A stretch of 64,000 nt of DNA from IMG/VR virus record IMGVR_UViG_3300047160_007109, positions 12,925-76,924 of that record. One strand, given 5' to 3'. The notes beneath the pieces were generated by a model, which saw only the letters and a list, made by a program, of their open reading frames with translations, did not search any database and had not been told where the DNA came from. The position numbers and the translations under genes were made by a program. The first letter of the stretch is position 1; every line of letters starts with the position of its first letter. Below are positions 43,141 through 63,844 of the stretch, piece after piece. The stretch is from a virus.

Positions 43141-43812
43141 TCAGGAAATGTCTGCGTTGACGCGCTGGTAGTCGTTCGGCGTCGGAATGTTCGGGAGAGC
43201 CGTGTCGTCGAGGTCGGCCCACGGCCAGTTCGTCACACCGACCAGGGACGTCACGTCGTCGAGTGGCCCGGCGTGGTACTTGTTGTTGACGACCCCGAAG
43301 AAGTCGTAGACCGGCAGCGCGACGCCGTTCTGGCGGTCGTGGCCGTTCGGAGCGAAATACGCCCGGGGCGAGATGGACCGCATGTACGGGGCGGTCGCCG
43401 CCGCGGCGCACTGCCACTGCTCCGACCACATTTCGAGCGAGACGCCGTTCTTCGTCTGCGTCCCGGTACAGCCCTGCCCGGCTTGGATCGCCCGGCCCGT
43501 CACGGTCGCGACCGTCAGGAGGTTCACCGACAGTTCGGTGATCTCGTCGAACCGGTAGTCCTGGTTGGCGAGGGTGAGGGAACCGGTGACGCGCTTGACG
43601 ATGTCGGGCCGCTTGCGGATCACGACCGGGAGCCCGCACGCGTCGAACTCGAAGATGTCTGCGCCCTTCTCGATCTCGAACGAGTACGAGAGCTTGCTCA
43701 TCCCGCCGAGGAGCGTGAAATTGCCCTTCGGGTTGTTGTACGAGATGGAGCCGTCCGACAGGAGTCGGCAGACCCGCACGGCGCAGAGGCCCATGATCGA
43801 CGTCGTCGCCAT
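43141..43812 (-). CDS. Major tail (tube) protein
   Basis: VRVCRLLSDG, EIEKGADI...DACG, SLTL pattern of actinophage tail tube proteins. Confidence 0.75.
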   Translation of the reverse strand: MATTSIMGLCAVRVCRLLSDGSISYNNPKGNFTLLGGMSKLSYSFEIEKGADIFEFDACGLPVVIRKRPDIVKRVTGSLTLANQDYRFDEITELSVNLLTVATVTGRAIQAGQGCTGTQTKNGVSLEMWSEQWQCAAAATAPYMRSISPRAYFAPNGHDRQNGVALPVYDFFGVVNNKYHAGPLDDVTSLVGVTNWPWADLDDTALPNIPTPNDYQRVNADIS

Positions 43813-43815
43813 CGG

Positions 43816-43989
43816 TTACTCCTTGAGGTCGGGGCGGATCCCGCCGAGCAGTTCCTCATCGGACTGCGGGCGGAGAACGAGGCGTTCGGCCTGCGGGAGA
43901 GGCGCGCGCGCCGGGATCGAGGCGGCAGGCATCATCGTGCGGACTTCGGGGACGCCGTTCCCGCTGGAGTTACCACAGCCGCATCCCAT
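43816..43989 (-). CDS. 57-aa MGCGCG-type small protein
   Basis: ATGA overlap; MGCGCG N-terminus; below ORF-track cutoff. Confidence 0.6.
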   Translation of the reverse strand: MGCGCGNSSGNGVPEVRTMMPAASIPARAPLPQAERLVLRPQSDEELLGGIRPDLKE

Positions 43990-45212
43990 CAGCTAACGCT
44001 CCCGGCGTAGTTCTGGACCTTGACGCCGAAGATGGCGCAGGGGTCGTAACGGACAATTGCCATGCGTTGCGCCCAGACCTCGTACTGGTTCGTGCGGCCG
44101 CCGGAACCGGCCGGGCCGTACCGCCGCTGGTAGTCCTCGGTCGGGAGGACGACCGTCGGGCCGAGCGCGTATTCGACCGGGCCGGACACGAACATCCACG
44201 CCTCGTTGAGCCCGTTCCCGGCGTAGACCTCCGTGTTGGTGCCCTGCCCGGCGTCGGCGGTACCGGAGATGAGCGGCCCGTTGCCGTTCGCTCCCTGCGT
44301 CGACGCGCCGTGCGGGTAGCCGGGACCCGGCGAGACGACGGAGCCGAGCGGCCCCCGGTAGAAGTCGCCCTGGCGGGTCGCGATCCGGCCGCCGCCCGGG
44401 ATGCCGCCCTCCGCGCCGACCATCAGCACGGACGGGACGTGGAGGACGGCTCCGCCCGACCCGAACGTCGCCTGCTCGTACTGCGACAGGAGAATCGCTG
44501 CGCCGACATCGACCGTGACCGCCGCGCCGCCCGTCACGTCGACCGCGTTCCGGCGGAGCGTCGTCACCGACGAGTCGGCGATCATGCCGACGCCGAGCCA
44601 GAGTGCTTGGCCCATCGCGTACGCCGTATGGACGTTCGTGAGCGCCGTGGCGTCGTCGGCGAGGCGAGTCCCTTGGTGCGCCCAATCGCAAGCGAGGGGC
44701 GTGTAGAGCAGGAACGGGTCCGTGTGGACCGCCGTGCCTTCCTCGGACGGGTCGACGCGCTTCGTCGAGACGCCGTCGTACGTGGCGCAGCGAACCTCGG
44801 GATACGTCTTCTGGCAGGCGAGGGTGTTCCAGGTGATACCGGTCCGCCACGACGCGTCGGCGAGGCCGAACAGAGCCTCCCCGGACAGCGCCGCGTCCGC
44901 GACCGCTCCCGCCTGCCGTGACTCCGGCTCCGACAGGGCGAGACGGATCGCGTCTCGGGCTTCCACCGCGGCGAGCCGCAGTTGGCCGGTCCCTGTGTGG
45001 TTGTCGTCGTCGCCGAGGCGGGCGAGGCCCTCCTCCATTGAGGCGAGATGCGGCCGTGGATCGCTGCCGTCTTTGAGGGCGGCGACAGCCGCGGCGTATG
45101 CCGTGGCGACCTGAGCGGCCGGGAGAGGACGCGCCGTCGTGAGGATCGACGGGACCGGGGCGACAGGGTCGACCCGTCCGAGGGGCTGCCAGAACCCCGT
45201 CTGTTCCGCCAT
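43989..45212 (-). CDS. Second capsid-associated protein (minor capsid/decoration-like)
   Basis: Directly after MCP; WRTGITW...C, PFLLYTPLAC, ALWLG, YEVWAQR. Confidence 0.6.
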   Translation of the reverse strand: MAEQTGFWQPLGRVDPVAPVPSILTTARPLPAAQVATAYAAAVAALKDGSDPRPHLASMEEGLARLGDDDNHTGTGQLRLAAVEARDAIRLALSEPESRQAGAVADAALSGEALFGLADASWRTGITWNTLACQKTYPEVRCATYDGVSTKRVDPSEEGTAVHTDPFLLYTPLACDWAHQGTRLADDATALTNVHTAYAMGQALWLGVGMIADSSVTTLRRNAVDVTGGAAVTVDVGAAILLSQYEQATFGSGGAVLHVPSVLMVGAEGGIPGGGRIATRQGDFYRGPLGSVVSPGPGYPHGASTQGANGNGPLISGTADAGQGTNTEVYAGNGLNEAWMFVSGPVEYALGPTVVLPTEDYQRRYGPAGSGGRTNQYEVWAQRMAIVRYDPCAIFGVKVQNYAGSVS

Positions 45213-45259: not shown

Positions 45260-47104
45260 TCAGGATGCGGTCGAGCAGGTGTACGGGGTGACCGTTCCGC
45301 CCCGGCTGCCGTTGTCGCAGAACTGGACGTCGATGTAGGCCCAGTGCTGAGGCCCGGTCTTGGCGGTGAGGAACCCCTCTTCTGCGAAGAGTTGCGCCTT
45401 GTTCATCCGCATCAGGTCCGGCGACCGCTGGACTCCGGTGTTGGTCTCCCCGGTCTCCCCGAACAGAGCCCCGGACGTGTCGATGATCCGGACCCGCCAC
45501 TCGCCGTTGAGGTCGGGGACGCCGATCTCGGGATCGCCCGGCTCCTGGAGGCGGAACAGCGGGTAGCCCGGTTCCGTCGATGGAGCGTCGATCGTCTCGA
45601 TCACTTCGGCGACACCGTCGAGCGTCGCGGCGAGTTCGCTGACGACGTCGACCGGCTGGAGGTCCTGACCGAACGCCTTCGACACACGGTCGACGCCGAG
45701 GAGCGTCGAGACGGTCCGCGGAATGTAGACCGTGTACCGGGGCTCGGCGATGCGGTCGGCGTACGCCATCTGGGCGATCAGGGCGTTGACCGCCTTGGCG
45801 AACGTCGGCATCGCGCCGTACGAGCCGGTGAACGTGTACGCCCCGGAGAGGGCGTCGAGGTCGGCGAGGATCTGCGCCTCCTTGTTGCGTGCCTTCGCCG
45901 CCATCAGCGCGTTGAGGAAGTTCTGGACGACCTCGGGGTTGCTCATCTCCGTCGTGTTGTCGAACCGGAGCGCCGCCGTCGCCCACTTGATCCGCACGTT
46001 CGAGACCGTCTGGCACGTCACGTCGACGATCGGCTTCCACGTCGCCGAGCTACCGACGTTGACGTTGCCCTGCGACGTCTCCGTCCAGATCGTCGACCCG
46101 GACGAAACCGCCGAGAGCTTGATCGACGGGATGAACTGGAACCCGCCCCGGCCGACCGGTCGGCCCGGCAGCGACGGTGCGACGACCGCCGTCGTGGAGA
46201 ACGCATCCGGAATGTCGCGGATCGGCTCCAGCGGATCACAGATCGCGGCCGTGTGGGCGGGACGCTCCGCCTGGTCGAAGCCGCGCCATCCCCTGACGTA
46301 CGGGTGCTCGGCCTGCGCCTGGCGGATGATCTCGTGGTTCCGCTCGACGTTCGAGCCCGACAGCATGTCGCCGGTGAACGGCTGGTCGCCCATCTGGTCG
46401 AACGCGGCGACGGAGGCGAGATACGTCGAGCCCTCCCCGCCTTCCTTGACGCGGTCGATCATGTGGCCGAGCGTCCCGAAATCGAGGTCGGAGCCCTGCT
46501 GCGCGAGGCCGGACCCGGCGGCTGCTTGCATCGCGACCCGGGGACGGGTCGACACGGCGGCGGTGCGGGTCGGTTCCTCGGTGATGGCCGACGGTTCCGT
46601 CACCGTCACGACCGGCGTGCCTTCGCCCGGAGCGATGTCCGCCGCGGAGGCGGAAGCGAACGCCGGGTTCGGGTCGGGCAGCGTCGGGAGCGGGTTGGCG
46701 TCGAGGTCGGCGAGCGGAGCGTCGACAGCGGTCTGCTGCCGGGCCTGGCGGCCGTCCCACGCGGCGGAGAGCCGCAGCGCGTCGCGGTGAATCGCCTGGA
46801 GGATCCGGACGTCTTCCTCGGTGCGGGCGAGCGGCCGACGAGCGTCGTAGGCGTCGCGCGCCTGGCGGGACGCCTCCTGGACCTGCGCGTCGGTCAGGCC
46901 ATCGAGGACGTCGGGGATCTGCGGAATCGCCGGGAGCGCCGGAGGAGCCTCCGCGGCCGGAGCCGCATCGGTTTCGGCGGCCGGGTTCTCCGTGACTTCG
47001 CCGGTCGGGGCGGACTCACTCGTCTCGGAGGTCGTGGGCTCCGGCGGAACGGCCTCGGCCGTCGGCTCGGACGGAGCAGGGGACTCGGGCGTCTCGTCGG
47101 GCAT
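45260..47104 (-). CDS. Major capsid protein with N-terminal scaffold-like domain
   Basis: Acidic Pro/Glu N-terminus; ICDPLEP...GRGGFQFIP; DLMRMNKAQLFAEE. Confidence 0.85.
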   Translation of the reverse strand: MPDETPESPAPSEPTAEAVPPEPTTSETSESAPTGEVTENPAAETDAAPAAEAPPALPAIPQIPDVLDGLTDAQVQEASRQARDAYDARRPLARTEEDVRILQAIHRDALRLSAAWDGRQARQQTAVDAPLADLDANPLPTLPDPNPAFASASAADIAPGEGTPVVTVTEPSAITEEPTRTAAVSTRPRVAMQAAAGSGLAQQGSDLDFGTLGHMIDRVKEGGEGSTYLASVAAFDQMGDQPFTGDMLSGSNVERNHEIIRQAQAEHPYVRGWRGFDQAERPAHTAAICDPLEPIRDIPDAFSTTAVVAPSLPGRPVGRGGFQFIPSIKLSAVSSGSTIWTETSQGNVNVGSSATWKPIVDVTCQTVSNVRIKWATAALRFDNTTEMSNPEVVQNFLNALMAAKARNKEAQILADLDALSGAYTFTGSYGAMPTFAKAVNALIAQMAYADRIAEPRYTVYIPRTVSTLLGVDRVSKAFGQDLQPVDVVSELAATLDGVAEVIETIDAPSTEPGYPLFRLQEPGDPEIGVPDLNGEWRVRIIDTSGALFGETGETNTGVQRSPDLMRMNKAQLFAEEGFLTAKTGPQHWAYIDVQFCDNGSRGGTVTPYTCSTAS

Positions 47105-52466: not shown

Positions 52467-53354
52467 CTAGACCCGCTCCACCGTTCCGGCCATCCGGTCG
52501 AGGACCTCGACCACGTCCGGGTCGTCGACCTCGGCGATGCCACGCTCGAAGTAGACGTTGTGCCGGGCAGCGCGCACGACCCGAGACGGCGACCGGAACC
52601 GGACCGGCCGGTCGAGCGGCTTCGCTTCCTCCGGCATCTGCCCGGCGAGGAGAGCGCGCATCAGCCGTGGGACCTCATCGGCGGACTGGTACGCGCGGAG
52701 GAGCGTGATCGAGCCGGGGTACAGCGGCGACCGTGCGCCGGGCGTCTGATGCGGGTGCCACAGATGCCAGACGTGCCCGTCGAGGAACCATCCGGGGCCG
52801 AGGAGCGTCGACAGTGCCCGGCCCCACGCCTCGTCTTCGCCGCCCCAGCCGCGGAACCGTGGGTCGAGCGGGCAGGCATCCCAGCCCGACGCGGGCAGGA
52901 CGACGATGCCGCCGCCGCGGACGCCGACGTACTCCCGCCGGTCGAGCGTCCCCGGAGCCAGGATCGGTGACTGCCCGGCGGCCGTCGCCTCGTACAGCGC
53001 CCTCGTCGTTTCCGGACGGAGGCGGCGGACGGTCTCGTACGGCATCGCCCACGGCGCGGCCCGGTCGACGATCTTGCGGACGCAGCGGGCGAGCGCCGAG
53101 CGGGTGACGAACACGTCGGCGTCGGCGACGACGAGGACCGTCGCTTCCGTCTCGGAGCGTGCTCGGGCGAGCGCCTCGCCTTTGCTCCACCACGGATCGC
53201 CGGGGCCGCGCTCGTCCGGTGTCCGGTCGGGCTTGCCGACGACGATGTCCCAGTCGGGGAAGTCCCGCCGGTACCGGTCGCGGACGTAGCCGAACGCGGC
53301 GTCGCGCCACTCGTCGAGGCCTGAGACGTACGGGATGAGGACGGCGACGCTCAC
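52467..53354 (-). CDS. Glycosyltransferase (GT-A fold, galactosyltransferase-like C-terminal motif)
   Basis: VAVLIP, VVADADV, DPRFRGWGGEDEAW, HLWHP. Confidence 0.85.
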   Translation of the reverse strand: MSVAVLIPYVSGLDEWRDAAFGYVRDRYRRDFPDWDIVVGKPDRTPDERGPGDPWWSKGEALARARSETEATVLVVADADVFVTRSALARCVRKIVDRAAPWAMPYETVRRLRPETTRALYEATAAGQSPILAPGTLDRREYVGVRGGGIVVLPASGWDACPLDPRFRGWGGEDEAWGRALSTLLGPGWFLDGHVWHLWHPHQTPGARSPLYPGSITLLRAYQSADEVPRLMRALLAGQMPEEAKPLDRPVRFRSPSRVVRAARHNVYFERGIAEVDDPDVVEVLDRMAGTVERV

Positions 53355-53582: not shown

Positions 53583-53824
53583 CGTCCCTCTCCTGCCGTT
53601 CGGCTTCCGGGAGGGGCGAACGTGGCCCGAGCCCGAGCGAGACGCTCCTCCGCCGTTTCAGCGGCCGTGATCGCCCGGTCGATTCCGGTCACGTCGGCAG
53701 TGTCGCCGAACTTGCGGATCCGCGCCCGGCGAGCGCCGCGCTTGTACGAGACGTACCGGTGGAGGGCGGCCGTAACGTGGCCGCCCTCCTCCTCGGTGAA
53801 CTCGATGACGAGCCTGCGGCCCAT
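53579..53824 (-). CDS. Hypothetical protein
   Basis: ATGA overlap. Confidence 0.6.
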   Translation of the reverse strand: MGRRLVIEFTEEEGGHVTAALHRYVSYKRGARRARIRKFGDTADVTGIDRAITAAETAEERLARARATFAPPGSRTAGEGR

Positions 53825-54705
53825 CAGTCGCCGTCCTCGATCCGGTTCAGCCGGTCGTCGGGGATGGCGTCCCAGTACCGGCCCGACGGGACGTCGACCC
53901 AGAGGACCCGCCCAGCGACGCGCCGCCCCCGGTTGTACCGGTCCCAGACGATGCGAGCGACGGCCGTGCCGACGTCGCCCTCGACCCGAACCTCGATCCG
54001 GAGGGTGCGTGCCGCGGCGAGGAGCCGCCGGGACGGGTTCGCCTCCAGGATCTTGTAGAGGCGCTTCTCGTCGATGACGTGGGCGTAGCGGGACAGGACG
54101 ACGGCCGTGCCGAGGATGACCTCCCCGGCGAGCGGCTCCTCATCGGCGTGACCTGCCTTGACGAGCAAGTCGAGCGTCCGGTCGAGGATCTCCGGCCCGG
54201 CTCCCTTGAAGATGCGGCGCAGCGTCTCCGGCGAGCGGATCGCCCCAGCCCGGCGCAGGTTCCGGTTCACGGCGAGGCCGTTCTTGCGGATGATCCGGTC
54301 GATGGCGACCGTCTCCGGGTCCTTGGCGGCGAGGAGCGCGATGTAGACGTCGACCGTGTGCGGGCGGACCCGCTTCACGTTCATGTCGGCGAACAGCTTC
54401 GCTTCCCGCTCCCGGCTCAGACCGTGGAACACCTGACACGGAACACGTTCGTGTTCGCCCCACAGGTCCAGGATCGCGGCCTGCCGGTGCTGGCCGTCGA
54501 GGATGACTTCCTCGCCGGAGTCGCGGCGGCTGATCGTGAACACGCCGACGAGGTCCGGGTCGAACTCCCGGGCGATCTTGTCGACGCGGCGACGATCGAG
54601 GCACCGCTGATACTTCGGGTCGACGGCGAGGTCTCCGACCGGGAGCCACTCGAACGTCTGCTTGGTACCGCCTCCTGCGAGAGACTTCTCACGCGGAGCC
54701 ATCAT
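53824..54705 (-). CDS. ParB/DGQHR-like (DUF6551-type) protein
   Basis: LAVDPKYQR...VILDGQHRQAA...EAKLF..MN. Confidence 0.8.
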   Translation of the reverse strand: MMAPREKSLAGGGTKQTFEWLPVGDLAVDPKYQRCLDRRRVDKIAREFDPDLVGVFTISRRDSGEEVILDGQHRQAAILDLWGEHERVPCQVFHGLSREREAKLFADMNVKRVRPHTVDVYIALLAAKDPETVAIDRIIRKNGLAVNRNLRRAGAIRSPETLRRIFKGAGPEILDRTLDLLVKAGHADEEPLAGEVILGTAVVLSRYAHVIDEKRLYKILEANPSRRLLAAARTLRIEVRVEGDVGTAVARIVWDRYNRGRRVAGRVLWVDVPSGRYWDAIPDDRLNRIEDGD

Positions 54706-58150: not shown

Positions 58151-58180
58151 ACACTAGACCAAACCGGAGCCGATGTCTAG
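58151..58180 (-). promoter_or_regulatory. Dyad promoter copy: TAGACA-N17-TAGTGT
   Basis: 8-copy motif in divergent intergenic gap. Confidence 0.8.
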
Positions 58181-58207: not shown

Positions 58208-58552
58208 GTGGTCGACTGGTGGCGGCGGGTCCGCGCTTGGTTCGAGCGGCTCGCCGACGAGACGAACCGGCCGGTCGCCATCCGGCGCATGAACGGCTGG
58301 GCGGCGATCGTTTCGCTGATCCTCATCGCTCCGACCGTGTTTTGGCTCCAGGACTCGATCCTGTGGGTGGCGTTCCTTTCGATCTGGGCGTTGTTCGCGA
58401 CGCACTACGGGACGTGGTTGACAGCCCGAGTCGAAGTCCGCCAGGAGCAGGTGCAGGCGACGCTCCACGTCGAGCCCGGCGACGAGCCCGGCGACATCGA
58501 CGTGTCCGGAACGATGGAGACGAGCCCCGTCGACGAGGACGAACCCAGCTAG
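58208..58552 (+). CDS. Membrane protein, the only credible plus-strand gene
   Basis: Two hydrophobic helices (WAAIVSLILIAPTVFWL, ILWVAFLSIWALFATH); fills a gap with no good minus-strand ORF. Confidence 0.7.
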   Translation: MVDWWRRVRAWFERLADETNRPVAIRRMNGWAAIVSLILIAPTVFWLQDSILWVAFLSIWALFATHYGTWLTARVEVRQEQVQATLHVEPGDEPGDIDVSGTMETSPVDEDEPS

Positions 58553-58743: not shown

Positions 58744-59003
58744 GGCATCGGGGCGAGCGGGAGCGTGATCGAGCCGACTGGCGGGAGGAGCGCCGGGACG
58801 TGCGTCTTGGTGACGTTGACGCCGTGCGGGGCGGATTGGGAGCCGTACTGGAAGCGTGCGCCGTCGGGGAGGACCCAGGCGAACAGGATCGTGACCGGGC
58901 CGGGGATCGGGTCGAACTCGACCGTCTGCGGGACGGTCAGGTCGAGGTCGCCGTGCCAGACCCGAGCCCGAGTGTCCATCCGGTAGACGGCGCACTCCGT
59001 CAC
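58734..59003 (-). CDS. Small hypothetical protein
   Basis: GTGA overlap start (VTECAVYR). Confidence 0.55.
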   Translation of the reverse strand: MTECAVYRMDTRARVWHGDLDLTVPQTVEFDPIPGPVTILFAWVLPDGARFQYGSQSAPHGVNVTKTHVPALLPPVGSITLPLAPMPWV

Positions 59004-59176
59004 GATGCGGCCAGGGCGTTCCAGGCGTAGACGAACGCGACGAACGCGAGCCCGGCGGCGACGAGGTTGAACCGCTCCGGGACCCGGGCGAGCGCCGCGA
59101 CAGCGAACAGGACGAGAGCGATCAGGAAAAAGATCGCCTGCGCCGTCTGGCTCATGGTCGAGAGGGCGAGCACCAT
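59000..59176 (-). CDS. 58-aa two-TM membrane protein
   Basis: QAIFFLIALVLFAVAAL...FNLVAAGLAFVAFVYAW; GAGGAGG RBS; below ORF-track cutoff. Confidence 0.65.
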   Translation of the reverse strand: MVLALSTMSQTAQAIFFLIALVLFAVAALARVPERFNLVAAGLAFVAFVYAWNALAAS

Positions 59177-59185
59177 CGGTCCTCC

Positions 59186-60025
59186 TCAGAGCGGCCGACC
59201 GTCGATGACGACCGGGTCGTGTACGAGCGCCGGGACGACCTCCTCGTCGATCGACTCGGGATGGGTCGGCCGAGAGCGCCAGTACCACTTACGGTAGATC
59301 CCGGCGATCTCCTCGTCGGTGAACTTGTCGTACCCGCGCCAGTGCGCTCCGAACTCCTCGCCGAGCGTCGTCGCCCGGTACGCCGCCGCACCGTTGCGGA
59401 CCTTGCGGATCATCTGCGCCTCGGAGCGGTACGGGAAGTGGCGGACCTTGAGGACCGGCGTCGGCGTCGTCAGCCCGTAGTTCGCGCCGTGGTTCCCCAT
59501 CTCGATCGTGACCGGCATGACCGGCCGGACGGCGACCTTGGGGAGCGTGATCGGGACCGGGACGCGGTACTGGATGCGGCGGACCGGGTTCGCGTCGCCG
59601 TTGTCGAGGGCGGTCGCCCGGTAGTCGTAGACCCATGCCTTGGCGATCGACTCCGAGCCCGGGAGCGAGGCGAGGACCTGCGCGACCGTGCCCCACTCCG
59701 GCTCGCGGGAGTACCAGAGTTCGTCGGCGTCGAACGGGACGACCCAGTCGGCGTCCCAGACCATCCGGACTTCGTGGGCGAGCGCCGTCATCTGCGCCGA
59801 CTGGTAGTAGCCGACCTCGTCGTCTTCGGTGACGATCAGCCGGGAGCCGACAGCGGGACCGCCGCGGTACTCGTCGGCGAGCCGCCGGAGGATCGCGAGC
59901 GTCCCGTCGGTTGAGCCGTTGTCGGCGATGAGGACCCGGTCCATCTGGGCGAGGGCGTGGCGGACCGTCGTCTCGATGATGTCGGCCTCGTCCTTGACGC
60001 GGCAGATTCCGGCGACGAGGACCAT
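59186..60025 (-). CDS. Glycosyltransferase family 2
   Basis: CRVKDEADII, IADNGSTDGT, PFDADELW, VRHFPYRS. Confidence 0.9.
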   Translation of the reverse strand: MVLVAGICRVKDEADIIETTVRHALAQMDRVLIADNGSTDGTLAILRRLADEYRGGPAVGSRLIVTEDDEVGYYQSAQMTALAHEVRMVWDADWVVPFDADELWYSREPEWGTVAQVLASLPGSESIAKAWVYDYRATALDNGDANPVRRIQYRVPVPITLPKVAVRPVMPVTIEMGNHGANYGLTTPTPVLKVRHFPYRSEAQMIRKVRNGAAAYRATTLGEEFGAHWRGYDKFTDEEIAGIYRKWYWRSRPTHPESIDEEVVPALVHDPVVIDGRPL

Positions 60026-60708
60026 CAGACCGCTTCGCAGACGGCGACTTGCGTTGCCATGCAGGACCACGACTGGTCGTGGCCGCGGGTGAGGCCGAGG
60101 AACCGGATCCGGAACCCGGCGTCGTCGAGGAGCGCGTGGAACTCCGCCGCGTTCCACTCACGGACGTGGCAGATGTTCGGCGACGGTCCCCGATGCTCAT
60201 AGCCGTGCTGCAAGTCCCGTTCCGGCGTCGAGAACACGTAGACCGACCGGTCGAGCTTCCGGAGAGACTCCAGGAGCGGCCGCGGGTCCATCAGGTGCTC
60301 GACGACGTCGGAGACGACGACGACCGCCTGATACCCGACGACCATGTCGAGCCGGTCGAGGCAGCCGGACGTTTCGAGGTTCGCTTCGATCCAGCGGCCC
60401 CACGGATACGTCGTGCGGCAGCGGGCGAGGTTGGTGCCGTAGTCGACGCCGACGAACGTCCAGCCCGGGTGCCGTCCGTGGATGGCGGCGAGCTTCTCGG
60501 CCCAGCCGCAGCCGACGTCGAGGATCGCCGGAGTCTCGGCTTCGAGGATCGTCGCCGAGGCGATCCACTCGGCGAGCCGGTAGACGTCCGGCTGGAACGT
60601 GACCGTGATGGCATCGTCCCAGTCGGCCGAGCGGGGCGAGTCCTCGAAGTAGATCGGGACAGGCCGCTCCACGTAGTCGGGCGGCAGATGCAGGCCGGGA
60701 TCAGGCAT
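60025..60708 (-). CDS. Class I SAM-dependent methyltransferase
   Basis: ILDVGCG, VGVDY, SDVVEHLMDP, STPERD, HVREW. Confidence 0.88.
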   Translation of the reverse strand: MPDPGLHLPPDYVERPVPIYFEDSPRSADWDDAITVTFQPDVYRLAEWIASATILEAETPAILDVGCGWAEKLAAIHGRHPGWTFVGVDYGTNLARCRTTYPWGRWIEANLETSGCLDRLDMVVGYQAVVVVSDVVEHLMDPRPLLESLRKLDRSVYVFSTPERDLQHGYEHRGPSPNICHVREWNAAEFHALLDDAGFRIRFLGLTRGHDQSWSCMATQVAVCEAV

Positions 60709-61358
60709 CAGGGTCTCCGTTGGGCGATGGTGAGGCCGCGCGGCGTCGGCAGGTCGAGCATGAGAAGCCGGTCGCCGAGGCACCGGTCGAGTTCGTCGCG
60801 CAGCGATAGGCCCGAGGCGATCCGATGGCCGCCACGGCCGGGAGCCGTGTCGTGGAAACAGACGACCGCTCCCGGCGCGAGGAACCGCTCGAACCGCTCG
60901 AACTCGGGGACGCGTAGCTCGTAGAGCGAGTCGAGCCAGACGAGCCCGAACCGGACGTCGTGGGGCGGCGTCCAGTCGAGCGACGAGGAAGCGATCCCGT
61001 ACGTGTGCCCGATCCGAGCGAGTCGCCGCTGCGCGTAGGCGAGGCGCTCACCGTCCGGGTCGAGCGTCCAGAGGACGCCGCGCCCGTTCTCCCGGAGGCC
61101 GAGCGCGATCTGCTCGGCGGTCTGGCCGAACGCGGTGCCGGTTTCGAGGACGTCGTCGGGTTGAAGCGCGCGGACGAGCCCGTAGGCGACGTCGGAGACC
61201 TCGATCTCCGTCGAGTCGCCGTCGGTGGAATGCCACCGTCCAGGATGCGGGCAGCGGGCGTCCGGGGCGATGAACCGCGACTCGGGGAGCGGGTCGTCGC
61301 CGGGGACGTCACGGCCTGGTTCGCCTGCCATGCCAGTCGGGACGAACGGCTCCGCCAT
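60708..61358 (-). CDS. Class I SAM-dependent methyltransferase (Methyltransf_24-like)
   Basis: VLETGTAFG, WTLDPD, LVWLDS, VVCFHDT. Confidence 0.85.
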   Translation of the reverse strand: MAEPFVPTGMAGEPGRDVPGDDPLPESRFIAPDARCPHPGRWHSTDGDSTEIEVSDVAYGLVRALQPDDVLETGTAFGQTAEQIALGLRENGRGVLWTLDPDGERLAYAQRRLARIGHTYGIASSSLDWTPPHDVRFGLVWLDSLYELRVPEFERFERFLAPGAVVCFHDTAPGRGGHRIASGLSLRDELDRCLGDRLLMLDLPTPRGLTIAQRRP

Positions 61359-61723
61359 CAGTCGACCTTCCGCGTGTATCGGCCGAGAGCGTCCCGGCCT
61401 CGATGCTGGCGTCCCTTCCGGACCTTGTCGGCGTTGTTCTCGGCCGCCGTCCCCGCGAACAGGTGCGCCGGATTGCAGCACGACGGGTTGTCGCATGAGT
61501 GGCAGACCTGGATGCGCGAGGGGAGCCGGACGCCGTTTACGAACTCGTAGACGAGGCGGTGCGCTGACGTGTGTCCGCCGTCGCGTCCGGTGCGCCGAAC
61601 GATCCCGTACTGGCGCGACTTCCCGCCGCCGACCCGGCCGAGCCACGGCCAGCACTCGTCCGGGCCGCGCCGATCAACCATCGCCCAGAGGCGCTCGCCG
61701 AGCGGGATCCGTGGCGGAGCCAT
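61358..61723 (-). CDS. HNH homing endonuclease
   Basis: [33 protein letters not shown]. Confidence 0.9.
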
Positions 61724-62452
61724 CTAGTAGCCCGTTCCCACGCGGTGCTGTCCCAGATGCGTTACCCAGGGCGTCCCGTCGCCCCAGTAGCCCGAGACGA
61801 CGTCTGGGTGCGTCTCCCGGTAGCGGTGCCAGAACAGGCCCTCCGAGTTCGGCTCGGTCGGCCAGCCCGACGCGCAGAGCCGCCGCCGGTAGATCGACGG
61901 GTTCGTCGTGAAAAACAGGCGGTGCTCCAGCCAGGAGACCTCACGCGAGCGGCCCTCGGCCTCGGTCGGGATCAGGTTGATCGTCCGCCGGACGTACTCG
62001 TCGGGATGCCGCTGGACGACGCCTCCAGCCGCCTGCTCCTCCGGCGACCATGCCTGGCGGACGAGCGCCATCTGGACGAGGTTCGGCCGGTACTCCATGA
62101 CCGCTTGCAACTCGACGACGTCGACCGGCCGGTCGAACCCGAAGTCGTCCTCCAGGTGGAACACGTAGCGAGGCGGGGCGTCAGGAGCCCAGATGTTCGC
62201 GAGGTAGTCCCAGGCGCGGCGGATCGTGCCGCCGAACCCGAGCCTGCGCGCGTTGGGGAGAACCGTCCACCGTTCGCCGTACTCGACGTTGAGGAACTCC
62301 CGGTAGAGCGGATCGGCGGAGTCGTCGAAGATGAGCCGCCAGTGGCGGCCCGGGCCGAGGTCGACGAACTGCTCGAACGAGTCGAGCGTCTCGGCGATGC
62401 ACTCGTAGCGGCCGTCGGTGAAACAGACCACCGCGACGCCCGGGGCGGTCAT
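61724..62452 (-). CDS. Glycosyltransferase (GT-A fold)
   Basis: LIFDDS, LGFGG, YVFHLEDDF, FTTNPSIYR, VTHLG. Confidence 0.8.
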   Translation of the reverse strand: MTAPGVAVVCFTDGRYECIAETLDSFEQFVDLGPGRHWRLIFDDSADPLYREFLNVEYGERWTVLPNARRLGFGGTIRRAWDYLANIWAPDAPPRYVFHLEDDFGFDRPVDVVELQAVMEYRPNLVQMALVRQAWSPEEQAAGGVVQRHPDEYVRRTINLIPTEAEGRSREVSWLEHRLFFTTNPSIYRRRLCASGWPTEPNSEGLFWHRYRETHPDVVSGYWGDGTPWVTHLGQHRVGTGY

Positions 62453-62751
62453 GAGACGACGATTTCGGCGTGGCGGCGACCCGGGAGCGGGACGACGCCT
62501 CCGGGTGTTTGGACTTCGACGAGGGCGGCGAGGTCAGCGACCGCGTAGGAGACCGTCTCGCCGTCCCAGGGTGCCGCCTCCGGCTGCGAACGGATCGTGA
62601 GGCCGTTCGTGTCCCAATGGATGCCGACGCAGCGTCTCCAGCCGCTCAGGCTGCCGGAGGGCGGGTCCTCGAATCGGAACACGTCGGACGGGACGAGGTC
62701 AGCGACGCGGATCCAGGCGAGGCGTACCTCGCGGCGGAGATGCTCGGTCAT
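62449..62751 (-). CDS. Hypothetical protein
   Basis: ATG behind CCCGAGGAGG. Confidence 0.65.
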   Translation of the reverse strand: MTEHLRREVRLAWIRVADLVPSDVFRFEDPPSGSLSGWRRCVGIHWDTNGLTIRSQPEAAPWDGETVSYAVADLAALVEVQTPGGVVPLPGRRHAEIVVS

Positions 62752-63110
62752 GAGTTCCTCCTCGGGCGGATGAGCGCCGTTCCGGCGACGATCTCAGGCG
62801 GGAGGAGATGCGCGTCGACCTCGACCCGTTCCGACGCCGGGAGCGGCTCGCCGGTCTCGTCGACGTAGACGATCTCGACCGGGCCGAGGATCTCCAGCGT
62901 CAGCTTCGGCGACGTGATCGGCATCGGGACCGGTTCGCCGTCGGGTCCTTCGCCGAGCTTCACGGCTTCGACCGTGGCGCGCAGAATCGACCGGACCCGG
63001 ACGCCGTCGATCTCGACCCACCAGAGGCCGAACCCGGCGTTGACCTCATCGACGGACCGGGCTGGACGGTCGAACGCCCATCCGGTCTGCGCGATGCGGA
63101 TGCGGCTCAC
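62748..63110 (-). CDS. Hypothetical protein
   Basis: GTGA overlap start (VSRIRIAQ). Confidence 0.6.
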   Translation of the reverse strand: MSRIRIAQTGWAFDRPARSVDEVNAGFGLWWVEIDGVRVRSILRATVEAVKLGEGPDGEPVPMPITSPKLTLEILGPVEIVYVDETGEPLPASERVEVDAHLLPPEIVAGTALIRPRRNS

Positions 63111-63844
63111 CGTTCGAGCCCGGCGTAGTCGGTGTGGTCGTACGCCGTCAGGTACGGCGAGACGCCACGTTCGCGGGCGGCGACTTCGCCACGGCGAATC
63201 ACTTGGTACCAATGGTTCGACAGGCCGGGCGACTGGCGGTTGCGGGAATGGGCGGTGACCGTCGCGTCGTACTCCGCGCCGGGCGCGTGGACGAACTCGA
63301 TCCCGGCGCGTTCCAGACGGAGGAACACGTCCCAGTCCTCGTAGATGGGGAGTTCGGGGCGGAAACCGCCGATGCGGAGGAACGGGCCGATCGGCGTCGC
63401 GGAACCGACGACGAAACAGTTGATGTCGAGGAGCGGGCGGCCGTCGCACAGGTCGCGAGGCGGCCCGACGATGCCGTCCTCGACGTACCGGACCTTCGGG
63501 TAGAACACACGGTCGGGTTGCGGCGCGTCCGGGTGCGGAGCCGACGCGATGAACATCAGGTCGGCGTCGCGGTAGGCGTCTTCCATCGCCCGGACGTAGC
63601 CCGGGGCGAGCAGGTCGTCGCCGTCGCAGTAGACGAGATGCGTCGTGTCGGGGTAGTGCTCGGAGACGTGGACCGCCGCGCCATTCCGGGCTCCGGCGAG
63701 CGTCCCCTCCGAATGCCAGCGGACGTAGTGCGCGGCGGAGCCCTGCTCGCGCATCAGGCGTTCCATGACCTTGTTGCCACGGTCGAGCCAGTCCTGGCCG
63801 ACCTGTTCGATCCCGTACGTGCAGACGCAGACGGCGACCTTCAT
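63107..63844 (-). CDS. Glycosyltransferase family 2
   Basis: VAVCVCTYG, LAGARN, VYCDGDDLL, IGGFRPELPIYEDWDVFLR; start MKVAV behind GGAGG. Confidence 0.88.
   Translation of the reverse strand: MKVAVCVCTYGIEQVGQDWLDRGNKVMERLMREQGSAAHYVRWHSEGTLAGARNGAAVHVSEHYPDTTHLVYCDGDDLLAPGYVRAMEDAYRDADLMFIASAPHPDAPQPDRVFYPKVRYVEDGIVGPPRDLCDGRPLLDINCFVVGSATPIGPFLRIGGFRPELPIYEDWDVFLRLERAGIEFVHAPGAEYDATVTAHSRNRQSPGLSNHWYQVIRRGEVAARERGVSPYLTAYDHTDYAGLER

Follow-up and report, generated by a model that had tools for sequence, protein, structure and literature searches.

Decoration of virus particles with glycans has reportedly been observed in the mycobacteriophages Che8, Corndog and Myrna. To our knowledge, virion glycosylation has been shown for few mycobacteriophages only, and it is said to shield the particles from antibodies. 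Here we describe a cassette of glycosyltransferases (GTs) and methyltransferases (MTs) in IMG/VR virus record IMGVR_UViG_3300047160_007109, an uncultured, apparently lytic, high-GC soil phage. The window, that is the whole stretch of DNA analysed, comprises 64,000 nucleotides and corresponds to genome positions 12925-76924 of an 84.7-kb virus contig (69.6% GC; CheckV completeness 81%). Coordinates are those of the window unless they are given as genome positions, and features lie on the minus strand unless stated otherwise. Five soluble GT-A enzymes (GT0 to GT4) and two MTs (MT1 and MT2) are encoded between the portal and the head genes, and we favor, with moderate confidence, the reading that they constitute a Corndog-like MT-plus-GT cassette for virion glycosylation in an uncultured soil phage lineage.

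In Corndog, an O-methyltransferase (gp35) and three GTs (gp36-38) are encoded between portal and capsid protease (PMC4351075), and two papers state that these proteins modify both capsid and tail tube (PMC11600133, PMC12363180, citing Freeman et al. 2023). Furthermore, Che8 gp110 and Corndog gp38 have been described as essential to capsid glycosylation (PMC12363180). The locus considered here resembles that of Corndog in combining MT genes with several soluble GT-A genes between portal and head genes, in possessing a GT (GT4) homologous to gp37, and in encoding capsid and tail proteins that end in serine. However, it contains five GTs and two MTs as opposed to three and one; its MTs belong to other subfamilies and are not orthologous to gp35; ~6 kb of small genes, together with a ParB-like gene, divide the cassette in two, and an HNH endonuclease gene breaks it at a further point; and the phage possesses two capsid proteins. 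Che8 (cluster F1, gp108-110) offers a second comparison. GT4 is homologous to gp109, and Che8 gp6 and gp11 end in GS, as do many members of the capsid family found here, whereas gp108-110 lie at the right-hand end of the Che8 genome, well away from its head genes, and include no methyltransferase.

Four of the five GT-A enzymes are encoded within the window. GT0 (288 residues; genome 77324-78190) lies just beyond its end, and the best matches of its profile are SpsA, ArnC and TarP. An earlier first-pass annotation of the window had recognized GT-A enzymes at 63107, 61724 and 59186 and another GT at 52467; Pfam, PHROG, sequence motifs and, for GT4, an AlphaFold2 (AF2) model bear out all four, and the total is enlarged by GT0. 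GT1 (63107-63844; about 245 residues counted from Met28 of the open reading frame) is a GT-A enzyme of GT2-like type, assigned from its frame of third-codon-position GC content (GC3), its motifs and its profile. Taken alone, its Pfam and NCBIfam matches are all sub-threshold, and a single-sequence AF2 model was unusable (predicted local distance difference test, pLDDT, 36), so that a profile search was used in its place. The alignment of five sequences, GT1 and four homologues, displays the GT-A motifs V.V.TYG, TLA.ARN, LDADD and YEDW, and the profile matched solely GT-A/GT2 enzymes in the PDB, including PglI, TarS, GmaR and GalT1. GT0 gives a similar picture. Homologues of GT1 are present in the contigs L004, L005, L010 (the sister phage) and L021, and in the mangrove-soil phage GX15bay, the closest public record.

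GT2 (61724-62452; phrog_3047, E 1.7e-11) is a GT-A enzyme of the 'galactosyl transferase' type with an EDD motif, for which tblastn matched ~200 mycobacteriophage GTs; identity is 27-28% to those of cluster C1 (E about 5e-8) and 41% to a galactosyltransferase of GX15bay. GT3 (59186-60025/60070), a GT2-family GT-A enzyme, exceeds the Pfam cut-offs for both Glyco_tranf_2_4 (E 1.9e-14) and Glycos_transf_2 (3.4e-7). Its start is probably Met16, which gives a one-base overlap with the stop codon of MT2, and its homologues in GX15bay, L002-L005, L010 and L021 are 33-74% identical. GT4 (52467-53354; phrog_1721, E 1.9e-16), a beta4GalT/GT7-like GT-A enzyme with DAD and WGGEDE motifs, returned Corndog gp37 (2e-10) and Che8 gp109 (6e-8) by BLASTP. 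The AF2 model of GT4 (pLDDT 83.7) has a GT-A fold that matches phage galactosyltransferases, chondroitin synthases, beta4GalT1/7 and ppGalNAc-T2 and also resembles Che8 gp108 at fold level; the profile of GT4 matches beta4GalT7 at 2.4e-6. The GT-A fold, established through Pfam GT2 families for GT3 and the model for GT4, is accompanied by DxD-type nucleotide-sugar/metal motifs: DGDD/DADD in GT1, EDD in GT2, and DAD in both GT3 and GT4. Transmembrane segments are absent from all seven enzymes (GT0-GT4, MT1 and MT2).

MT1 (60708-61358; Methyltransf_24, E 1.5e-8) is a COMT-like (family 3) O-methyltransferase dependent on S-adenosylmethionine (SAM), and MT2 (60025-60708; Methyltransf_23, E 2.3e-7) is a class I SAM methyltransferase; both Pfam matches lie above cut-off. 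The two genes stand between GT2 and GT3, which places an O-methyltransferase beside GTs within the head gene block. A profile of MT1 built from 46 homologues matches YrrM/COMT-type cation-dependent O-methyltransferases at ~2e-6. Metagenomic homologues of MT1 number more than 200, and in all four genomic contexts that were read, likely phage contigs, the homologue adjoins a GT2-type GT or sits no more than two genes from one; tblastn of MT1 against phage records and a single-sequence scan of IMG/VR gave no match. Neither MT contains a [DNS]PP[YFW] or PCQ motif, in agreement with the first-pass annotation, which had seen no DNA-methyltransferase motif. With DPPY, NPPY and PCQ lacking and with profiles of the O-methyltransferase and small-molecule methyltransferase types, MT1 and MT2 were ruled out as DNA methyltransferases. 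The MT1 family also displays an N-terminal motif, ESRF..P...CPHPERWHSTDGDSTE.EV, that is strongly conserved and precedes the SAM-binding fold (residues ~26-54; ~61197-61283), for which we found no relation to any described element.

Gene frames were called by GC3 periodicity together with our own gene calls. Essentially all genes are on the minus strand, where GC3 periodicity also puts those of the 52-64 kb region; it likewise bears out the reading frames given in the first-pass annotation. The portal gene (897 residues; genome 81885-84578; phrog_776) is followed by a gene for 81 residues and by a copy of a repeated dyad promoter (genome 81264-81290), downstream of which come seven small genes, one with a cold-shock domain (CSD), and then GT0. 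Two small genes separate GT0 from GT1, after which the order is orf120, orf100, GT2, the HNH endonuclease gene, MT1, MT2 and GT3. A gene for a 58-residue hydrophobic protein and two small genes lie 3' of GT3, and the transcription unit stops at ~58549. GT4 stands ~6 kb beyond GT3; three further copies of the dyad promoter (58154, 57647 and 55966) occupy the interval, and GT4 is preceded by a group of small genes, one of which encodes a ParB-like/DUF6551 protein. GT4 is the last enzyme ahead of the head genes and, as had been proposed from the window alone, directly adjoins them: genes for tagged head-cargo proteins, a MuF-like protein and the capsid proteins follow. The first head-cargo gene carries a GNAT domain in this phage versus an ADP-ribosyltransferase toxin-like domain in the sister phage. 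The contig is not closed, being without terminal repeats in a terminal-repeat test; no terminase gene was found on it, and megablast of the region against phage records gave no match.

Judged by gene order, diverged uncultured relatives retain the cassette at this position, with the portal on one side and the head genes on the other. The core order GT0, GT1, GT2, GT3, GT4 is present in four IMG/VR contigs and several contigs from Logan, JGI and ENA, and in these GT4 comes directly after GT3 (L002 and L004 among them). MT1 and MT2 occur as a pair in L010, the sister phage, and also in a compact relative, MT2 occurs alone in L021, and L002, L004 and L005 have neither. Because the GT0-GT4 core is kept and the MTs are present only in some relatives, MT1 and MT2 behave as optional tailoring enzymes of the same pathway. 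The compact relative reads TerL, DUF1360, portal, AAA, CSD, three GTs, MT24, MT23 and a GT, continuing with proteins of 287, 372 and a capsid-sized 575 residues. The cassette is similarly placed between portal and head genes in L021, L025 and L027, and in L028 (11312-14589) the two capsid genes are separated by two GT4-like genes. In GX15bay, homologues of GT1, GT2 and GT3 are encoded in a row; four additional GTs and a methyltransferase come before them, and the terminase gene stands a few genes downstream. A query with the capsid protein recovered a homologue in one of five GT3-related records.

Several of these relatives show variations of their own. In the sister phage a Prok-JAB (JAMM metalloprotease) gene (L010, 11388-11837) is inserted between MT2 and GT3, where the phage studied here has none, and the equivalent of GT0 is called as a gene for 481 residues. 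The sister phage is present in the soil samples 3300031747 and ERZ27255086. Sugar enzymes inside the head module are also seen in other phages with this capsid family (L026 and L028); in L026 (2983-7840) a GT-B-like gene, a GT2-like gene and a strong NAD-dependent epimerase directly precede the capsid gene.

Three structural proteins are predicted to be the acceptors. The long capsid protein (614 residues; 45260-47104; phrog_777) joins a disordered Pro/Glu/Thr-rich N-terminus of ~200 residues to an HK97-type body and ends in ...PYTCSTAS. A second, HK97-fold capsid protein (407 residues; 43989-45212), ending in ...AGSVS, was assigned through Atlas, its features and structure matching major capsid protein clusters. 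The tail-tube-like protein (223 residues; 43141-43812) ends in ...NADIS and was likewise assigned through Atlas, where its features match the Phage_TTP_1 and YomU_Tube clusters at 0.93-0.95. The two consecutive capsid genes recall the hexon and penton capsid proteins of Jabs (10.64898/2026.07.24.740622). Among 128 full-length representatives of the long-capsid family at 50% identity, 65 (51%) are Ser-terminal, 27 of them ending in GS and 19 in AS, and the C-terminal tail is conserved across the family as G-L-x-x-P-x-x-C-x-x-[AG]-S. Homologues of the 407-residue protein end in serine in L025, L027, L028 and G001, as do those of the tube-like protein in all six database members and in L025 and L027. 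The capsid and tail proteins gp6 and gp11 of Che8 and gp41 and gp49 of Corndog end in GS or DS. Freeman et al. (2023) reportedly place the glycans at the C terminus of the virion proteins.

Terminal serine in the relatives appears to track the presence of GT0-GT4-type enzymes, which we regard as a lead and not as proof. With the C-terminal residues given in the order long capsid, second capsid and tube-like protein, the reading is S, S, S for the phage studied here (GT0-GT4), for L025 (GT0 and two GT4-like enzymes) and for L027 (GT0 and GT4); the full triad is thus found in both relatives that have GT0/GT4-type genes and all three proteins. L028, with two GT4-like enzymes, reads S, S (tube not found), and G001, with GT0, GT2, GT3 and GT4, reads S, S for the two capsid proteins, the only ones compared. 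V, I, V is the reading in L026, where the GT-B-like and GT2-like genes and the epimerase take the place of any GT0-GT4 type. Two contigs end just upstream of the capsid gene, L031 reading P, M, A and L030 reading A, S, S; L029, which has five GT2-type genes ~90 kb away, reads S, I (tube not found). L026 had been considered as a GT-free control but carries these other sugar enzymes. An alignment of 60 capsid sequences proved too diverse to be used in scanning for loci, and the 15-sequence version gave five loci, a small sample for co-variation.

Taken together, the enzyme families, the homology to mycobacteriophage GTs, the position in the head module, the optional MTs and the terminal-Ser pattern are directly supported, and they lead us to consider virion O-glycosylation with methylated glycans a somewhat likely function of the cassette. 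The first-pass annotation had proposed a glycan on the virion or the host surface and not on DNA, and the comparative tests lend support to the virion part, to which we give a better than even chance. That all seven enzymes are soluble likewise speaks for virion proteins as the target, and the COMT type of MT1, its location next to GTs in other contigs and the occurrence of a cellular MT2 homologue in a polysaccharide locus speak for methylation of the glycan. In such a model, five soluble GT-A enzymes and two SAM-dependent MTs would form a glycan-building cassette that works in the cytoplasm of the infected cell, with host nucleotide sugars and SAM as its substrates. They would make a short oligosaccharide, O-methylated in part, and place it on the terminal serine of both capsid proteins and of the tail-tube protein, and attachment before or during assembly would give a particle with a sugar-coated surface. 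The acceptor, the O-methylation of sugars and the order of the steps are the parts of this model that we infer.

A number of observations weigh against it. The cassette is known from the genes of an uncultured phage alone, and no glycan has been observed. A homologue of Che8 gp110/Corndog gp38 was not found by BLASTP among 39 proteins of the region (E <0.1), a pairwise search that a remote homologue could escape. MT1 falls outside the subfamily of Corndog gp35, and a hidden Markov model of the MT1 family showed no specific relation to either gp35 or the MT of GX15bay. Terminal serine is common, being found in 16 of the 113 proteins of this genome, and the tag alone is therefore weak evidence; the co-variation comes from fewer than ten contigs that are related to each other, with L029 and L030 mixed; and the head and tail proteins of GX15bay are not Ser-terminal despite its GT1-3 homologues. 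Finally, the promoter of the cassette is of the repeated dyad type that heads non-structural gene blocks, and the cassette is not obviously a late operon.

The same promoter type bears on a different proposal, namely that the target is something other than the virion surface, be it phage or host proteins outside the virion, cargo proteins packaged in the head, or a small molecule. That GT4 lies directly ahead of the tagged head-cargo genes is in keeping with this proposal, which nevertheless has no positive evidence and leaves the terminal-Ser pattern of the capsid and tube proteins unexplained; we judge it very improbable.

In favor of the host envelope as the target, the profiles of the GTs resemble enzymes of undecaprenyl-linked or teichoic-acid glycans (PglI, TarS/TarP, ArnC and SpsA). 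Here the GTs and MTs would act on lipid-linked or cell-wall glycans, for example altering the receptor against adsorption of progeny or rival phages. A bacterial homologue of MT2, P0196 (44% identity), lies within a Wzy-type polysaccharide locus with Wzy, GT2, GT4-family and epimerase genes, and a small membrane-like protein follows GT3. This 58-residue hydrophobic protein (59000-59176; maximum Kyte-Doolittle 19-residue mean 2.71; 72% identical in the sister phage) comes directly after GT3 and is the sole membrane-like product of the unit holding GT0-GT3, which contains no multi-pass membrane protein. Of the small membrane proteins that the first-pass annotation had placed downstream, it alone is clearly membrane-like. 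Gtr seroconversion systems comprise the flippase GtrA, GtrB and the membrane GT-C enzyme GtrC. The cassette shares with seroconverting phages the use of phage-encoded GT2-family enzymes; however, its enzymes are without membrane segments and it is located in the head module, and searches with Pfam and a membrane scan found no flippase, GtrA/B/C, Wzx/Wzy, acyltransferase, priming transferase or GT-C in it. Neither GtrA with GtrC nor Wzx/Wzy partners thus accompany the GTs. Nor does envelope remodeling explain the placement in the head module, between two capsid genes in L028, or the co-variation of terminal serine, and we regard the host surface, the other half of the earlier proposal, as an unlikely destination.

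Glycosylation of phage DNA was underrated by the first-pass annotation. To the left of the window (genome 129-4348), the contig encodes a ParB_N-like protein, a Tet_JBP dioxygenase, an amino-acid:DNA transferase (AADT), a pyridoxal phosphate (PLP)-dependent enzyme and a P-loop nucleotide kinase 3, and these genes also count against a virion target. The PHROGs label on the Tet_JBP dioxygenase, 'queuine tRNA-ribosyltransferase', is a mislabel. In this alternative, 5-hydroxymethyluracil (5hmU) made in phage DNA by the TET/JBP enzyme would receive sugars from the GTs and methyl groups from the MTs, giving a base-J-like glycosylated thymine as a block to host nucleases. Glycosylation of 5-hydroxymethylcytosine is indeed carried out by phage GT-A enzymes encoded near 5mYOX genes (bioRxiv 10.1101/2023.12.21.572611), GT4 has a second ParB-like gene just upstream, and YrrM/TrmR, an enzyme that O-methylates a hydroxylated uridine, is among the closest relatives of MT1 with a solved structure. 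Furthermore, contig G004 possesses the cassette and Tet_JBP together.

Set against this, the TET module, located at the opposite contig end, needs no GT to be complete. Its gene content fits a complete thymidine hypermodification module of the ParB-dependent T-dioxygenase class (PMC13229309). Such ParB-dependent enzymes go with kinases and AADTs, whereas the GT-linked T-dioxygenases form a ParB-independent clade (PMC13229309), so that the module present here is not of the GT-linked type. DNA-hypermodification genes normally cluster, and action on DNA is less likely for GTs that have no 5mYOX or ThyS as a neighbor (Pyle et al. 2023 preprint). The cassette resembles the phage DNA-GT clusters (Pyle et al. 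2023; Burke et al. 2021, PMC8256090) in its multiple GT-A enzymes repurposed from envelope enzymes and in the 5mYOX encoded in the genome, but its GTs are not beside the 5mYOX gene, and relatives keep the GTs without 5mYOX or ThyS. GX15bay (complete), G003 (93%) and G001 (84%) have the cassette and no Tet_JBP or ThyA homologue, and no C5-methyltransferase or ThyA homologue was found in the contig studied here. Neither clustering nor co-inheritance of the GTs with 5mYOX or a ThyA-type enzyme was therefore seen, and the nearest named GT homologues are of the virion-glycosylation type. We consider DNA glycosylation improbable.

It is tempting to speculate that the cassette and the TET module act jointly, the ParB-dependent T-dioxygenase making 5hmU on which the five GTs and two MTs would build a methylated oligosaccharide. 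Although we give this combination very little credence, it would represent a bacterial-virus analogue of base J with a tailored glycan and would have no connection to the terminal serines on virion proteins. More generally, a GT cluster in a TET-bearing genome does not automatically signify DNA glycosylation.

If virion glycosylation is indeed the function of the cassette, the finding widens a known trait and introduces no new principle. The trait would then reach a broad lineage of high-GC soil phages, uncultured and possessing two capsid proteins, in which glycosylation may be richer: as many as five sugars could be added, and two enzymes could provide optional methylation. GT4-type enzymes together with terminal serine on capsid and tube proteins could serve as a simple sequence predictor. 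In soil phages the role cannot be antibody evasion, and a glycan coat would therefore have an ecological function; stability, adhesion and the avoidance of phage or host proteins that bind or hydrolyze glycans are possible roles.

The remaining genes inside and around the cassette are small. The gene list of the first-pass annotation overlooked the free-standing HNH homing endonuclease between GT2 and MT1 (61358-61723; phrog_1872, E 2e-30). Its class I MTs at 60025 and 60708 are upheld by Pfam, but the 315-residue reading frame used for the latter is too long, because the upstream third is this separate gene in another frame. In the sister phage (69-76% identical) GT2 abuts MT1 with no HNH gene at the junction, which identifies the HNH gene as a mobile insert; the endonuclease is outside the glycan pathway. 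Between GT1 and GT2, orf120 (62748-63110) is a conserved protein, 80% identical in the sister phage, with no match in Pfam, PHROG, NCBIfam or Atlas, and orf100 (62449-62751), 44% identical in the sister phage, has no family match in Pfam, PHROG or NCBIfam. The second ParB-like/DUF6551 protein (53824-54705; phrog_1033), two genes upstream of GT4, is kept in the sister phage and not in the cassette of the compact relative. The sole convincing plus-strand gene (58208-58552; 114 residues; GC3 0.91) converges on the end of the GT unit beside the dyad promoter copy at 58154-58180, and may encode a regulator.

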